NCBI GenBank assembly: GCA_964531355.1
Contig: CAZHCT010000002.1
Coordinates: 1 to 31,970, forward strand
Origin: Candidatus Woesearchaeota archaeon
GTDB taxonomy: Archaea; Nanobdellota; Nanobdellia; SCGC-AAA011-G17; CAZHCT01
Length of the DNA: 31,970 nt
Direction of reading: 5' to 3'
The number at the start of each line of letters is the position of its first letter. The first letter of the stretch is position 1. Below the pieces are notes generated by a model. It worked only from the letters and a program-made list of their open reading frames with translations, was not told the DNA's origin and searched no databases. The position numbers and the translations under genes were made by a program. Positions 5,039 to 10,124 of this stretch are shown here, one piece after another.

Positions 5039-5269
5039 TTATTTTCTAAGCAATTTAAGAAAATCCTCTCTGCCTAATCCGCTTTGAGAGATTATGCTTA
5101 ATAATGTTCCTTTCGCAAGTTCTTTGTGCTTTGGAACAACTACAGTTATCTTTTGTTCTGGAATATTTTTGCATAAGATCATATGGCTTCCTGATTGCCT
5201 AGTCAATATAAATCCTGTCTTCTTTAGCACCTTTACTATTTCATCACCTGAAACAATGGGTAATTTCAT
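5039..5269 (-). CDS. hicA: HicA-family type II toxin (mRNA interferase)
   Basis: MKLPIVSGDEIVKVLKKTGF...RQSGSHMIL...VVVPKHKELAKGTLLSIISQSGL is a HicA signature. Confidence 0.92.
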   Translation of the reverse strand: MKLPIVSGDEIVKVLKKTGFILTRQSGSHMILCKNIPEQKITVVVPKHKELAKGTLLSIISQSGLGREDFLKLLRK

Positions 5270-5505
5270 AAGAATAATCTTGTAGCTATTGGAGGCAGAA
5301 GTTTTTCTTGTTCTTTAGGAAACTTTTCTGGACATTCTTCTAAGTAAAGATTAATTGCATCTTTTATGTTTTCTATTGCTTCTTCATAACTATAACCTTG
5401 ACTAGCAATTCCTAAATTTAAGCAATGAGCAACAAAAACTTTTTTTCCATTAATTATTTCTTCATTTACAGCTATGTCAAAAACTCCATTCATTTTTCTT
5501 TCCAT
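5266..5505 (-). CDS. hicB: Short HicB-family antitoxin without a C-terminal DNA-binding domain
   Basis: FVAHCLNLGIASQGYSYEEAIENIKDAINLYLE; 4-nt overlap with hicA; ATG at 5505 preferred over GTG at 5511. Confidence 0.88.
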   Translation of the reverse strand: MERKMNGVFDIAVNEEIINGKKVFVAHCLNLGIASQGYSYEEAIENIKDAINLYLEECPEKFPKEQEKLLPPIATRLFL

Positions 5506-5509
5506 ATAC

Positions 5510-5582
5510 ACTTAATTGTTTTATTTATTTATAAGCTTTATGGTGCATTATTTTCTAGACTTAAAATACTTAATTGTTTTAT
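5510..5582. repeat. 15-bp direct repeat ACTTAATTGTTTTAT (5510-5524 and 5568-5582) plus 20-bp repeat copy 2 (5549-5568)
   Basis: Exact matches read directly; 5549-5582 is the 3' end of the 116-aa gene. Confidence 0.9.
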
Positions 5583-5898
5583 CCAATGCTTTTCTGAATC
5601 TTAATGATTTTTTTTCATTGATAAATGCTGCTTCTATCTCTGGATTTTTGCTTATGACAATCTCAAGAAAACCATTTTTTTCAAACATAAACCTTTCATA
5701 GCACTTGTTGTTTATTATGTCAAATCCCATTGAATAGATTTTTTCCTTAAAGTATTTTTCAAGAATTTTCATGAATTTTTCCAATGAGCTCCATGCTTCA
5801 TGAGTTTTCTTCAACTTTTTATCCAGTTTTAACTCTTCTTTTACTGCAAAAGGCAGTATACTTCTTTTATCATTGAGTCTTATTGTGTATGATTTCAT
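5548..5898 (-). CDS. Hypothetical protein
   Basis: 116-aa ORF with TATA-like TTTATATT about 25 nt upstream; no recognised motif. Confidence 0.65.
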   Translation of the reverse strand: MKSYTIRLNDKRSILPFAVKEELKLDKKLKKTHEAWSSLEKFMKILEKYFKEKIYSMGFDIINNKCYERFMFEKNGFLEIVISKNPEIEAAFINEKKSLRFRKALDKTIKYFKSRK

Positions 5899-5963
5899 CT
5901 TTTATATATTATTTATTCAATAAATATAAACCTATTGTTTTTGATTTTTATATCATCTTGCTC

Positions 5964-6001
5964 TTACCCTCTACATCTTAAAATTAGATTGTAAAGGGTA
6001 A
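5964..6001. repeat. 38-bp palindromic site TTACCCTCTACA-N14-TGTAAAGGGTAA at the Fic 3' end
   Basis: 12-bp inverted arms with one mismatch; partner site at 7033-7070. Confidence 0.95.
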
Positions 6002-6002
6002 A

Positions 6003-7001
6003 TTAAAGGAATATGCTCCAATAGGAATCTATCATCTCTTGCGAGATAAATTGAATTAATCCAAAGTAATCCTCTCTTGGGGATTGGGTAAGCGGACTTT
6101 TATCGGATCTTCTAAGCTGATTTAAGTATTCTGCTCTTCTTTTTTTGTATATTACCAGCGGCGGATATCCATTTTTCATCAAGATAAAATTCAAGAGCAT
6201 TCTTCCTGTTCTTCCATTGCCATCCATAAATGGATGTATCTTTTCTATTTTATGATGAAAGATAGAGGCTAAAGCTATCGGATGAAGCTTTTTTTTATTC
6301 TGTTCATACCATCTTAGCAATAGGTCCATATCTGTTTTAACATAGGGGGCTGGCGTTGCATCAAAATTAGACCTTAAAACTCTTACATCAGCATTTCTAT
6401 ATCCTTTTCTTTGGTCTATATTTTCTGTTAGATCAGAATGAACTTTAATTATAAGCTCATGGTTTATTTCTTCATTGCATTTTATTAAATCTAAAAAAAC
6501 TCTTTCTGTGTTTTGCAAATCATAAATTTCTCTTAATGTTTTATTCTTGGGGGTAAGGCCTTCTTCTAATAGGTTTGCTGCTTCTTTTAGCGTTATTGTG
6601 TTTCCTTCTATAGATGCTGTGTTAAATGCAAATTCTATTATAAAATACTTAAATATTTCTTTTTTTCCGAGATTATCTTTTTTTAAAAAAACATTATTAT
6701 AATGCAATTTACAGGCTTCTACTTCAATAAGCTTTTTATCCAGAAACTGGTCTTTTTTAAGCTTCAACGAAGCAGCCTTTTCCAGAAAATGATTTGATTC
6801 TATAAAGGAGTTAATAGTTTTGTAGGCTTTTCTTATTTGTTTTTTATATTTCTTCAGCTTGCTCATAGATTTCCTTACTTCTTCTATGGAACTGCCTAAG
6901 TAAGCAATGTCTTTAACCATTATTTTATTTTTTATTCTTTCAGAAGCTCTGAGGTAATAATAAGGTTTTCCGCTGACGATTTTTTTGTATATATAAACCA
7001 T
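6003..7001 (-). CDS. Fic-domain protein with an N-terminal extension
   Basis: Complete catalytic motif HPFMDGNGRTGR; FAFNTASIEGNTITL; N-terminal beta-rich YIYKKIVSGKPYYYLRASER segment. Confidence 0.95.
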   Translation of the reverse strand: MVYIYKKIVSGKPYYYLRASERIKNKIMVKDIAYLGSSIEEVRKSMSKLKKYKKQIRKAYKTINSFIESNHFLEKAASLKLKKDQFLDKKLIEVEACKLHYNNVFLKKDNLGKKEIFKYFIIEFAFNTASIEGNTITLKEAANLLEEGLTPKNKTLREIYDLQNTERVFLDLIKCNEEINHELIIKVHSDLTENIDQRKGYRNADVRVLRSNFDATPAPYVKTDMDLLLRWYEQNKKKLHPIALASIFHHKIEKIHPFMDGNGRTGRMLLNFILMKNGYPPLVIYKKRRAEYLNQLRRSDKSPLTQSPREDYFGLIQFISQEMIDSYWSIFL

Positions 7002-7032
7002 AATTAAGATGAGTAATCTCTATTTATAAACT

Positions 7033-7070
7033 TTACCCTTTACATTAATAAATTAAATTGTAGAGGGTAA
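7033..7070. repeat. 38-bp palindromic site TTACCCTTTACA-N14-TGTAGAGGGTAA upstream of Fic
   Basis: Same 12-14-12 architecture as 5964-6001; abuts the Fic TATA box (7023-7030) and the stop codon of the 710-aa gene (7071). Confidence 0.95.
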
Positions 7071-9203
7071 TCAAATTTTTCTATGCTTTAATTTATATGC
7101 AATAGATGGATGCTCTCTCCCTACTTTTATTGAATGAATCAACAAGTATTTTTCCTTTGTTTCTGGAAGTGAATGCTTTAATGAATTTTTCAATGCATGA
7201 GCGAATTTTTTAGCCCGTTTTTTATATATGAAATGAGCTACCAATGTCAATGGCTTGTTTTCTATTACATCAATAAACCCATCTTTTTTGAAGATATATT
7301 TATTCCTATTTTCTTCTTCTGAATGTATATGAGTTATCGGCTCTCTGAAATTATGCTCTGTTGTTTTTATCAAGCTGCTTTCATTTATTAATGAGTTTAA
7401 GTCTATCAAATAAACATAATAATGCTTGAATCTTAATAACATAAATGGAATTAATAATGCCAATAATAATGGCCATAATGAGAATATAATTCCTGTTGTG
7501 ATAATTACTGCACTGAATGTTAATATGTTTTTTGGTATTACTGGAATTGAAATTGGCTGCTCTTCTACAGGGCATTTTTTGCATCCATCTCCGCAATCTA
7601 CTCCTGTTTCAAAGCAGTCCTGTTTTGAGTTATTGCAATGATTATGACAATCTCCTTGGGTTAATGCTAGATATTGCTGCTTGCATTCTTCATCTGGTCT
7701 TGTGTATTTTTTAAAACATCCTCTTTCATAAACACATTCTTCTATTTCATCTTTAACACATTTTTTATATGCATAAGAGCATTCATTCTTGCAGACACAT
7801 TCTCCATTACTGCAGGTTTGGTATGTTTCACAGTAAATTCTATTACTCCAATATCTGCAGCCATCTGGATTTTGCAGGCAAGTATCATAAGCTTCATTAT
7901 CATAAGTGCATTTTTTCTCGTTTAAGGTGTTACAGCTGCTTGAGCAACCTGATGAACTACCACCTGAGCTTCCTCCACCTGAAGAACTGCTACCTGAAGA
8001 GGGGCATGCACCGCAATCTGATGAACAAGAAGAGCATAATTCTGTTCCTGAGCATAATCCACCACCGCAGGTGTTTATTGTAAATGTGAAGTTATTGTCA
8101 TAGAAATCTGTTTGGACTATTGTTGAATTGTCTGTACATTGAATATTCCATAAATATGTTCCATCTCTTAATGATGGGATTGTAATGTTGAATGTTTTGT
8201 TTGAGTAATTGTAGTTTATATCTCTTGAATTGTTAGCTAACCAAGAACCTGAGAAATTTGCGTATAAAGTGCAGTTTACTACTAAATAATCATCTTCTAC
8301 TGTAAAGTTGAAGTCTATTGGGGAAGAGGTTATTGATGATGCATTTAATGGGTAAGTTAAGTTTGAGACGTTTGGAGGATTGTCTTGTGTTAATGTTAAT
8401 ATTACATCCTTGTTTCCAGAGCCTATTAATATTGATGAGTTTACTGCTCTGAAATTTCCTATTGTTGCATTTACAGAATATGTTGCATAATATGCTGTTC
8501 CTGATGCTGTATCATTTGTGTATTCTGTTGCATTGAAGATTGCATGACCTGATGAATTTGTTGTTAATGTGTAAGTTGCTGAGGTTGAGTTAAATGCTAT
8601 AACTGTTGCTCCATTTACATTTGTTCCATTTGTGTAATTTACTTTTGTTCTTATATACCATTGTCTTGTGTAGTTTGATGAGGTTGTGAAGTTTATTTTT
8701 GAGTAGTTTACGTTTAATAATGTTATATTAATTGATTTTGTTATTTTGATGTCATTATTTGTGCTTGCGCTTATGTTTGAATTCCATATTAATGTGTTAT
8801 TTGCCGAGTATAAATGGATTCCTTCTGTTGTGAAAGAGGTTATTCTGCAGTTTCTTATGTTCATATTTGAGTTTATGCTTGTTATGTTCATTCCAAAACC
8901 TGCTGAACCTCCTCCTGTTATTGTGTTGTCTTGGCAGTTTAGTTCTGTGTTTGCTGCGTTGAAGATGGCACCGTTTGCAGCAAGTATAGAGTCACAGTCA
9001 ATCGTTCCGATAATATCATAATAACCTGTTCCTTTTGTTTGATCACAATATCCTGCTGCATTTAATGTTGTTAATCCGGTTATACTTGGTTTTAAAAAAA
9101 ACTCTTTTATAATTCCAAAGCCAAATAATATAATAATAAGTAACAGTAAGAATGGAATAAGTTCAAATTTCTTTTTAATACTATTTACACCTTTTTTAAA
9201 CAT
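7071..9203 (-). CDS. Large cell-surface protein (N-terminal TM/signal, beta-helix, Ig-like domains, Ser/Gly linker, Cys-rich repeats, C-terminal TM)
   Basis: Hydrophobic N-terminus then SITGL; Asn/Thr-rich with many N-x-S/T sequons; CGGGLCSGTELCSSCSSDCGAC; SSGSSSSGGGSSGGSSSG; ETGVDCGDGCKKC; TM segment before a cytoplasmic tail. Confidence 0.8.
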   Translation of the reverse strand: MFKKGVNSIKKKFELIPFLLLLIIILFGFGIIKEFFLKPSITGLTTLNAAGYCDQTKGTGYYDIIGTIDCDSILAANGAIFNAANTELNCQDNTITGGGSAGFGMNITSINSNMNIRNCRITSFTTEGIHLYSANNTLIWNSNISASTNNDIKITKSINITLLNVNYSKINFTTSSNYTRQWYIRTKVNYTNGTNVNGATVIAFNSTSATYTLTTNSSGHAIFNATEYTNDTASGTAYYATYSVNATIGNFRAVNSSILIGSGNKDVILTLTQDNPPNVSNLTYPLNASSITSSPIDFNFTVEDDYLVVNCTLYANFSGSWLANNSRDINYNYSNKTFNITIPSLRDGTYLWNIQCTDNSTIVQTDFYDNNFTFTINTCGGGLCSGTELCSSCSSDCGACPSSGSSSSGGGSSGGSSSGCSSSCNTLNEKKCTYDNEAYDTCLQNPDGCRYWSNRIYCETYQTCSNGECVCKNECSYAYKKCVKDEIEECVYERGCFKKYTRPDEECKQQYLALTQGDCHNHCNNSKQDCFETGVDCGDGCKKCPVEEQPISIPVIPKNILTFSAVIITTGIIFSLWPLLLALLIPFMLLRFKHYYVYLIDLNSLINESSLIKTTEHNFREPITHIHSEEENRNKYIFKKDGFIDVIENKPLTLVAHFIYKKRAKKFAHALKNSLKHSLPETKEKYLLIHSIKVGREHPSIAYKLKHRKI

Positions 9204-9251: not shown

Positions 9252-10124
9252 TCATTGTGATGTTGGATCGGGGAATACGTTATTTCCGGTTGATGACCAT
9301 TTTGAATCTTCTCTCCATTCTACATCCCCTCCTATATGCAGAATATTTCCTCCACCTTTAAGATTTCTCTTCGCAAGGTGATTTGCTATAGTCCTCTGCC
9401 CTGCTGTTCCTTCCCCATTTTCTAGTCCTGCATACCAATCGTATACAATAGGAAATCTACTATCCACTAGAAAGCCATTAATGACCTGCCCACCATTTCT
9501 TACTATTTGTACATCAAATGAATCAATATAAGACATTCTTGGTTGATTATCATTATAACCCGGAGTAGCTATTACAATTGTTGTTGGTTTTTTAGTTTCT
9601 TTATCTGCAGGACATCTAAAAGTTCCTGGTGTATCTATATAACCCCCTATGTAAATTAATCCTAAGGAAGCCACATTTAATGGTGATTCATAAAAAGGAT
9701 AATTTCCATCATAATCTAACATATATCTAGTTAAAGCTCCTCCAATATTCTTGAGATTAAAAGCACAACCAGCTCTATTTCCTTTTTCTATTGCTTCCCC
9801 TACTGGACCGGCTAATAATGCGGCAAGTATACCAATAATAGCCACAACAACAAGCAACTCAATCAATGTAAATCCTTTTCCGCCTGTTTTTTGAAATCTA
9901 TCAACTAATTCTTGATTTTTTTCATTGCTAAATCTAGATGTTATATCTGATGTTTCTTTGGGATCTAATTTACTAGCATAATTAACTGCCTCATTAAAAT
10001 TATTTCTAAACAGATATTTTTGAACTTTCTTAGCTACATTATAAAACTGAGAACTTAGATTAGGATATTCTCTATTCATAACTTCATTTATTGGCGTATT
10101 TAGCGCTATTGCTTCTAGTGACAT
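9252..10124 (-). CDS. Prepilin-type N-terminal cleavage/methylation domain protein (DUF1559/H-X9-DG-like) with an 84-aa leader
   Basis: GGKG|[20 protein letters not shown] at aa 84/85 with E5; [24 protein letters not shown]; C-terminal NH...[14 protein letters not shown]. Confidence 0.85.

Follow-up and report, generated by a model that had tools for sequence, protein, structure and literature searches.

A putative operator palindrome of a class II Fic gene, probably duplicated at the edges of a one-gene mobile module without a recombinase in DPANN archaea

Background

Class II is the commonest class of Fic proteins, the control and biology of which are poorly known, and CccR is among the few examples that have been worked out. 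Elements that lack an integrase are known as cis-mobilizable elements (CIMEs) and as Campbell-type insertions at tRNA genes, which have direct repeats at their ends and often lie at tRNA 3' ends, and the core sites of tyrosine recombinases consist of two arms of roughly 11 bp around a central region of 6-8 bp. CccR, a class II Fic of Yersinia pseudotuberculosis, binds as a dimer to its own promoter, where it leaves a footprint on two inverted repeats of 10 bp with 26 bp between them and acts as a repressor (PMC9755527). In Acinetobacter, modules are always inversely flanked by pdif sites of 28 bp, in which different arms for XerC and XerD lie on either side of a 6-bp spacer (PMC13141974). Here we describe a Fic gene that lies between two 38-bp palindromes in a stretch of 31,970 nucleotides, called the window below, from a Candidatus Woesearchaeota archaeon (GenBank assembly GCA_964531355.1, contig CAZHCT010000002.1). 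Like CccR it is a class II Fic with an inverted-repeat site over its own promoter, and like the Acinetobacter modules and the CIMEs it is bounded by short sites and carries no recombinase. The reading that we favour, with a probability of about 0.6, is that the palindrome is the cognate DNA site and operator of a self-repressing class II Fic and is duplicated at the edges of a mobile one-gene module that has no recombinase of its own. A search of the literature on the Fic domain in the DPANN (Diapherotrites, Parvarchaeota, Aenigmarchaeota, Nanoarchaeota and Nanohaloarchaeota) and other archaea gave one unrelated survey.

The genome of the window, G000, is of 743 kb in 65 contigs with 30% G+C and is 89% complete. 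Other G-numbers denote genomes and L-numbers denote loci, and g and f denote the genera and families of the order. The names of the Fic homologues fall in Pace-, Woese- and Nanoarchaeota, and an archaeal tRNA methyltransferase (aTrm56) is encoded at the locus of one relative, which indicates that the order is archaeal.

Results and discussion

The Fic gene and its two palindromes in the window

The Fic gene (6003-7001, minus strand; Pfam PF02661, E 1.8e-21) encodes 332 amino acids and is of the class II, FICD-like, AMP-transferase type with an extra N-terminal domain. Against sequences in PDB it aligned with FICD at E about 1e-25 over residues 106-301, and against PDB structures (Foldseek) it matched 3cuc at E 2.4e-10 and the FICD entries at E about 1e-9; its full-length AlphaFold (AF2) model has a predicted local distance difference test score (pLDDT) of 90. 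The catalytic motif read from the translation, HPFMDGNGRTGR (residues 256-267; 6201-6236, minus strand), is invariant in its columns H256-R267 across 35 homologues. The inhibitory-helix motif TASIEG, of the form [ST]xxxE[GN] (residues 128-133; 6603-6620, minus strand, also from the translation), aligns with TVAIEGN of FICD, its T128 and E132 are invariant in the same 35 homologues, and in the model it is placed in helix 110-131 and the adjoining loop, on the same polypeptide as the core. All the features of a class II Fic/Fido protein, that is, the HxFx(D/E)GNGRxxR motif, the N-terminal inhibitory motif and the Fic fold, are therefore present. The N-terminal domain (codons 1-48; 6858-7001, minus strand) is modelled as a three-stranded antiparallel beta-sheet with a helix, the pLDDT being 86 for residues 1-58, and it may bind DNA. 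Residues 1-105 matched no Pfam family at E <= 0.01 and no PDB sequence alignment extended N-terminal of residue 106; the domain is kept in all orthologues. Its three best Foldseek matches were the arm-type DNA-binding domains of the P4-like, HPI and HAI7 integrases, at non-significant values (E 0.39-0.54, template modelling score 0.29-0.38).

The pattern TTACCCTYTACA-N14-TGTARAGGGTAA matched exactly twice, at 5964-6001 (site A, minus strand) and at 7033-7070 (site B, minus strand), where 100 shuffles gave an expectation of 0, and these are the sole matches in the entire genome, in the rest of which the half-site is absent at 0 mismatches. In the sense of the Fic gene, site B, the upstream copy and proposed operator at the outer edge of the module, reads TTACCCTCTACA-N14-TGTAAAGGGTAA and starts at the base right past the stop codon of a 710-amino-acid open reading frame (ORF), and site A, the downstream copy at the other edge, reads TTACCCTTTACA-N14-TGTAGAGGGTAA and lies 1 nt past the Fic stop codon (6003-6005). 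The first-pass annotation of this DNA was thus correct in describing two 38-bp palindromes around Fic of the forms X-N14-Y' (site A) and Y-N14-X' (site B), with outer and inner arms that are perfect inverted pairs, at 0-1 nt from the flanking stop codons (7071 and 6003). A TATA-like box, TTTATAAATA (7021-7030, minus strand), lies 2 nt past the proximal arm of site B, and the ATG of Fic lies 31 nt past site B and 21 nt past this box, because of which the Fic transcript is probably leaderless or nearly so. A transcription factor B recognition element (BRE), if placed together with the transcription start from the position of the TATA-like box, would overlap the proximal arm of site B.

The upstream palindrome is a conserved part of the Fic promoter

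The family was represented by 50 non-redundant close Fic genes of 47-72% identity, including ones without an exact match to the core of the palindrome. When DNA homologues of the Fic gene from other families were aligned, the alignment extended as far as the outer end of site B (window position 7070), and the palindrome was present in them. In 50/50 orthologues the palindrome lies 30-33 nt 5' of the ATG with its proximal arm fused to a TATA-like box (...AGGGTAA-RN-TTTATAWA), and its distance to the TATA box and the ATG is set, whatever sequence precedes it. The core TTACCCT-N22-26-AGGGTAA was found in 35/240 genomes of the order, compared to 8 matches for a reversed control, with 1-3 copies per genome, and in many genomes two copies are spaced 1068-1120 bp apart with a Fic orthologue between them. 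A motif occurring at many unrelated promoters, which the first-pass annotation had named as the sign of a global regulator, is therefore rejected, as the half-site is found nowhere else in G000 and the genomes of the order that have the motif hold just 1-3 copies each; a chromosomal dif site is also rejected, the motif being missing from 205/240 genomes of the order. The search of genome and relatives that the same annotation had proposed thus returned a motif that is confined to two copies in G000, and in a metagenome-wide scan 71/94 classifiable sites were adjacent to Fic, 54 of them 5' and 17 of them 3' of the gene, with 23 truly solo and a further 37 too close to contig ends.

The consensus half-site is TTACCCTYTACA, in which CCC never varies and T2, A3, T9 and A10 hardly do, and family-wide the proximal arm is more conserved than the distal arm. 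The arms are of 10-12 bp and the spacer of 14-18 bp, and most sites have a total length of 38 bp (n = 50), the others measuring 39 bp (n = 10) or 37 bp (n = 7); reduced to its conserved part, the site consists of 10-bp half-sites, TTACCCTYTA, inverted and about 18 bp apart, with their centres about 28 bp from each other. Lineages with changed arms mostly alter both of them (TTTCCCCCTACA...TGTAAGGGGAAA in G059 and TTACCCCTTGAA...TTTAGGGGTAA in G045). Over 69 sites the arms mismatch each other at 11%, mostly at positions 1, 7, 8, 11 and 12, with 21/69 sites mismatched at position 7. This arm variation is uncompensated, and therefore the arms are better taken as half-sites for a protein than as the stem of a hairpin. 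That the palindromes are RNA hairpins acting as terminators or 3'-end stabilisers is accordingly extremely unlikely. Both G000 copies do abut the stop codons of genes that are transcribed toward them, the predicted RNAs fold at -10.9 to -17.4 kcal/mol (z -2.5 to -5.6), and some solo sites abut the 3' ends of genes or tRNAs, but folding is expected of any palindrome, the upstream copy keeps to the TATA box and ATG and not to what lies upstream, and a motif present only 1-3 times per genome is hard to reconcile with such a role. The first 13 solo sites suggested that a stop codon always lies next to the site; this did not hold in the wider sample, where 21 metagenome solo sites lie 13-811 nt from the nearest stop.

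Full-length relatives at a greater distance (29-34% identity), of the Iainarchaeum type and from Methanofastidiosum metagenome-assembled genomes (MAGs), keep the N-terminal domain and have related half-sites around their own TATA boxes, which are TGTGCNCCCTAA twice in direct orientation in the Iainarchaeum type and, in Methanofastidiosum, TGTAGTGGGTAA and TGTAGTGCCTA, the latter being inverted (L104, L108 and L116: 2371-2500). Taken together, the TATA-fused site in 50/50 orthologues, the half-sites of the distant relatives and the uncompensated arms lead us to interpret the upstream palindrome as the operator of Fic, and on this comparative evidence an operator appears to be a better supported function than that of att-type hybrids. 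Remoter Fic paralogues of 39-43% identity (L056, which is G022:C42, and L010, which is G039:C29) have another repeat on both sides, one that contains TGTAGTCCCT or TGTAATCCCT, which suggests that other Fic subfamilies may share the two-copy architecture with sites of their own. A full-length archaeal-type Fic of 57% identity with the palindrome upstream was also seen in L094 (JAFCCG010000004.1), which is labelled as a Chloroflexi bacterium. This label is probably a binning error, the alternative being transfer across domains.

The downstream palindrome as a duplicate of the upstream one

A second palindrome lies 0-8 nt 3' of the Fic stop codon in about 40% of the orthologous elements. The spacer identity between the two copies of one element is 0.71 on average, whereas it is 0.43 +/- 0.14 between elements, and in several pairs (G173, G113, G078 and G059) both copies are identical. 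By this likeness the downstream palindrome is a copy of the upstream site of the same element, and the higher identity within elements points to duplication or conversion that is linked to turnover of the module. The second copy is usually in direct orientation, and by spacer similarity it is clearly inverted in 2/19 pairs (L084 and L022). In G000 the arms of sites A and B are identical at 24/24 positions and the spacers at 6/14 in the inverted register, compared to 22/24 and 9/14, respectively, in the direct register, so that neither register is clearly favoured and the orientation is ambiguous. An identity of 9/14 has a P of about 0.10 at the local base composition, and for this reason the TAATTT that is indeed present in both minus-strand spacers, and that had been put forward as a shared core, is not significant.

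The first-pass annotation had taken the swapped arms as evidence of attL/attR-like hybrids, that is, a circle of roughly 1069 bp carrying Y-Y' would have recombined with a resident X-X' site through a XerA-like tyrosine recombinase acting in trans. The arms of G000 match this prediction exactly, and perfect X-X' and Y-Y' palindromes, which had been proposed as something to look for, do exist in relatives such as G120 and G041, though no empty allele was found for the G000 locus. However, two sites of one orientation with exchanged arms amount to a single imperfect palindrome that occurs twice, once inverted, and the exchange rests on a single polymorphic position, position 8, where the arms throughout the family have C in about 40% of cases and T in about 60%. 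In 17/19 paired elements the position-8 pattern is alike in both copies, as in plain duplicates, and it is reciprocal only in G000, for which we estimated a chance of roughly 0.1 from the arm frequencies. Since position 8 varies freely, 17/19 pairs are non-reciprocal and an inverted second copy fits equally well, the argument from swapped arms is weak, and most simply the reciprocal C/T of G000 is a polymorphism at a tolerated position or an inverted second copy. The spacer of 14-18 bp is also unlike the cores of tyrosine recombinases.

The alternative that had been offered alongside, that both sites are operators which Fic binds so as to loop its own gene, stood up in part, in that the fusion of the upstream site to the TATA box favours an operator. 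The stricter form of it, in which both sites are operators only and gain, loss or movement would not involve the second copy, is quite unlikely. Both copies keep their half-sites intact, apparently under selection, while the central spacer drifts, as operators would, and CccR provides a precedent for widely spaced half-sites (PMC9755527). The second copy must nevertheless be dispensable for regulation because about 60% of the orthologous elements have none, which also weakens the looping; copies within an element are far more alike than copies of different elements, the neutral spacer included; and the polymorphism described below is exactly that of Fic plus one site.

Between paired sites in the genomes of the order and in the metagenome sample no cargo other than Fic was found; L286 holds a decayed Fic and G047 a truncated one. 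At two loci (L200:11749-12593 and L015:1501-2246) a solo palindrome with the same geometry of site and TATA box lies before genes for MNT-type nucleotidyltransferases, which have AbrB-like or winged helix-turn-helix N-termini, and this may be reuse of the promoter after loss of Fic. The palindrome was seen in a single contig of the viral collection (IMGVR_UViG_3300031576_000380), at L179:2325-2362, where it is solo, without Fic, and followed by the half-site-like AATACCCTCCACTA. No synteny was found between the loci of solo sites and filled loci.

Gain, loss and movement of the module

In genus g129 the filled alleles (G230, G231 and G228) have the order flank, site, Fic, site, flank. G229 and G232 have no Fic; their flanks, which match those of G230 at 117/120 and 106/120 positions, respectively, enclose exactly one palindrome. 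The difference is of 1071 bp and is precisely Fic plus one site. The empty alleles of g13 (G046) and g23 (G174) have conserved flanks with zero palindromes between them. Relics were also found, namely two sites around a 363-bp Fic remnant in G047, a site and promoter followed directly by the final ~70 nt of Fic in G076, and two sites around the decayed Fic of L286. For the G000 locus no empty allele was found, the reason being that the neighbouring 710-amino-acid ORF is an orphan, and DNA from 5400 to 7800 matched only in its Fic part in 40 relatives. Two Fic contigs of about 1.05 kb were considered as circles; they have no terminal overlap and one of them breaks inside the palindrome, and so they are uninformative.

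The one-site empty and two-site filled alleles of g129 with the same flanks are what the hybrid model predicts, and the earlier claim that Fic entered at such a site holds to the extent that Fic is a discrete one-gene module. However, the outer arm and the spacers of the filled g129 alleles are not hybrids of the solo site or derived from it, and the empty alleles in g13 and g23 are siteless. Two tyrosine recombinases (C42:5389-5874 and C22:11211-11693) are encoded by G000, as the same annotation had suggested might be found, and like the two genes for Y1 transposases they are all on other contigs; within 2.5 kb of 20 loci there was no recurrent gene family besides Fic, and no linked recombinase or antitoxin. 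On balance the attL/attR account is unlikely. A transposon-like unit, of which the outermost arms are terminal inverted repeats and on which a DDE or an IS200/IS605-type Y1 enzyme that reads hairpins acts in trans, is very unlikely. In its favour are the perfect inverted pair of the G000 outer arms, the siteless empty alleles, the two Y1 genes and a possible 6-bp duplication (AYTAAA) around the G173 element when compared with G174. There is, however, no consistent target-site duplication around the elements, no similar half-site near the Y1 genes or elsewhere in G000, and no conservation of hairpin pairing, and ancestral ends should not be more alike within elements than between them, yet they are.

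Some elements are flanked by direct repeats of host DNA, which are a 34-nt piece of a tRNA on both sides in G159 and, in G113 and G139, 20-22 nt together with the site. In L058 (G097:C9), the element of which has no downstream palindrome, a 71-nt direct repeat that is not the site (56/71, ~79% identical) has one copy about 95-24 nt upstream of the site and the other 16-87 nt past the Fic stop codon, and a 48-nt direct repeat flanks the element in L074 (G092); both look like duplications of host sequence. Several elements adjoin tRNA 3' ends, which together with the tRNA piece of G159 would also suit the hybrid model. Intron-bearing tRNA genes of 99-129 nt (L032:1372-1500, L064:374-480 and L030:2630-2728) were found by Rfam and missed by ARAGORN. 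The solo palindrome of L032 begins at the base right after the tRNA 3' end, and in L064 a tRNA of the same type ends 1 nt before the Fic element.

The Fic tree conflicts with the genome families at well-supported branches, G004 (f5) lying inside f28 and G092 (f22) grouping with G031 (f4). The Fic genes of G113 (f22; L062, which is G113:C16) and G075 (f4; L067, which is G075:C25) are nearly identical and have an identical 78-nt downstream flank, which would be a very recent transfer or a mis-binned contig.

A model for the module and what weighs against it

A probable explanation for these observations, and the one that we favour, is that a Fic dimer would bind the upstream palindrome (7033-7070) through its N-terminal beta-sheet domain and would thereby repress its own transcription at the TATA box and BRE, as CccR does at its promoter. 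The downstream copy (5964-6001) would close a module of roughly 1.07 kb made up of site, promoter, Fic and site, which by our comparisons is gained or lost as a unit and appears to move between lineages. Candidate routes of movement would be a host tyrosine recombinase acting at the site, single-crossover (Campbell-type) homologous recombination through the site or through captured host DNA, and deletion between the repeats.

Several points weigh against this explanation. The resemblance of the modelled N-terminal domain to DNA-binding domains falls short of significance and is a lead, not a demonstration. An operator role alone leaves the second copy after the stop codon unexplained, and about a quarter of the sites are solo, beside unrelated genes, in genomes that possibly have no cognate Fic. 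The empty alleles disagree, with one site in g129 and none in g13 and g23. In addition, the flanks of G229 and G230 are 88-97% identical, but the solo site of G229 differs from the sites of G230 at 8/14 spacer positions and at two positions of the arms; as this divergence is far beyond that of the flanks, one simple integration or excision is not an adequate account of the history of the locus. Finally, the incongruence of the Fic tree could partly reflect mis-binning of MAGs.

A more speculative idea, which we consider improbable, is that the palindrome serves two purposes, being the Fic operator and also a site of crossover or synapsis, where the integrase-arm-like N-terminal domain of Fic would mark the site and a host tyrosine recombinase, or some other enzyme of the host, would excise a circle with one site and reinsert it at another place. 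If this is true, the module would be an archaeal counterpart of the dif modules or of the integrative mobile elements exploiting Xer recombination (IMEX), with the cargo protein as its own recombination-directionality or targeting factor.

The same architecture of N-terminal sheet domain, FICD-like core and promoter palindrome occurs in thousands of copies in the genome-reduced DPANN archaea. If Fic binds the palindrome, it would provide a clean archaeal repressor-operator pair on BRE and TATA, and if recombination also takes place at the palindrome, the module would be an example of how an element of one gene can spread with no recombinase of its own. In either case TTACCCTYTA-N18-TARAGGGTAA is a reliable marker for annotating Fic modules and their relics.

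Neighbouring genes in the window

Upstream and outside of the module is the 710-amino-acid orphan ORF (7071-9203, minus strand), the stop codon of which abuts site B; it had no Pfam, PADLOC or NCBIfam match and only itself was found among 5.8 billion proteins. Downstream and also outside is an ORF of 116 amino acids (5548-5898, minus strand) that starts 65 nt past site A and has no family match in Pfam, PADLOC or NCBIfam. Further on are the gene for a HicA toxin (5039-5269, minus strand; Pfam E 4.5e-18) and an ORF of 81 amino acids with a weak Pfam match to DUF7387 (5266-5511, minus strand), which overlaps it by 4 nt; the two are probably a HicAB-type pair. With this pair and Fic the stretch resembles a small accessory or defence islet. 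The composition of the Fic cassette shows no anomaly. In a 290-amino-acid ORF (9252-10124, minus strand), residues 83-104 match the prokaryotic N-terminal methylation (pilin-type) motif.

Comparison with known systems

Three candidate kinds of element do not fit. The palindromes are not integron attC sites, as their ends are TTACCCT.../...AGGGTAA and not RYYYAAC...GTTRRRY, the only cargo is Fic or its relics, and no recombinase is linked. A DDE transposon or a miniature inverted-repeat transposable element does not fit with the single possible 6-bp duplication of G173 in place of a consistent one, and an IS200/IS605 element, of the kind of palindrome-associated transposable elements (PATE-like), does not fit with stem pairing that is not conserved and with the absence of a related half-site elsewhere in G000 despite its two Y1 genes.

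The Fic core (residues 89-306) matched PDC-S04 at E 1.7e-36 and SoFic at E 1.3e-29 in PADLOC, and against the NCBIfam model of SoFic the protein scored 38.7 bits where the cut-off is 550 bits. Like the single-gene SoFic and PDC-S04 defence candidates, the G000 Fic stands alone as an accessory gene of a variable region, here near a HicA gene, and any defence role of it is putative; unlike in SoFic, the C-terminal winged helix (as in the naming of PDB 3eqx) is missing from the G000 Fic.

The organisation is like that of the dif modules in that a small accessory unit, there often a toxin-antitoxin pair, has no recombinase of its own and is bounded by short sites, and there the modules are shuffled between replicons (PMC13141974). 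The two sites of G000 can also be taken to be in opposite orientations, as C/D and D/C pdif sites are. Unlike in pdif sites, the arms are near-identical, the spacer is 14-18 bp and most pairs are direct, with only 2/19 clearly inverted besides the ambiguous pair of G000; arms of 10-12 bp and a total of 37-39 bp with such a spacer do not have the geometry of a Xer or other tyrosine-recombinase site. Also unlike in dif modules, Fic is the sole cargo, the site lies in the promoter as well, and the setting is an archaeal chromosome. An empty allele with one site and a filled one with two, as such modules would leave, was seen in g129, whereas the empty alleles of G046 and G174 are siteless. With CIMEs the module shares the absence of a recombinase, direct repeats at the ends, positions at tRNA 3' ends and the occasional duplication of host sequence; it differs from them in that the repeat is the element's own promoter palindrome and not a host att core, and in that it is of about 1.07 kb with one gene.

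CccR is likewise a class II Fic with an inhibitory helix and an extra domain, with inverted 10-bp half-sites over its own core promoter, and such a site lies over the core promoter in 50/50 of our orthologues. In CccR the DNA-binding domain is C-terminal, the spacer is 26 bp and the promoter is of the bacterial -35/-10 type (PMC9755527), unlike in the Fic module, where an N-terminal extra domain goes together with a spacer of about 18 bp and an archaeal TATA/BRE promoter and where the binding is predicted by analogy; also unlike the archaeal Fic, CccR has not been reported as a module bounded by its sites. CccR is thus the closest functional analogue of the module, and the Acinetobacter dif modules and the CIMEs are its closest organisational analogues. 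Each part is akin to known kinds, and what is new here is the combination of an apparently self-regulated Fic with a module that has no recombinase.

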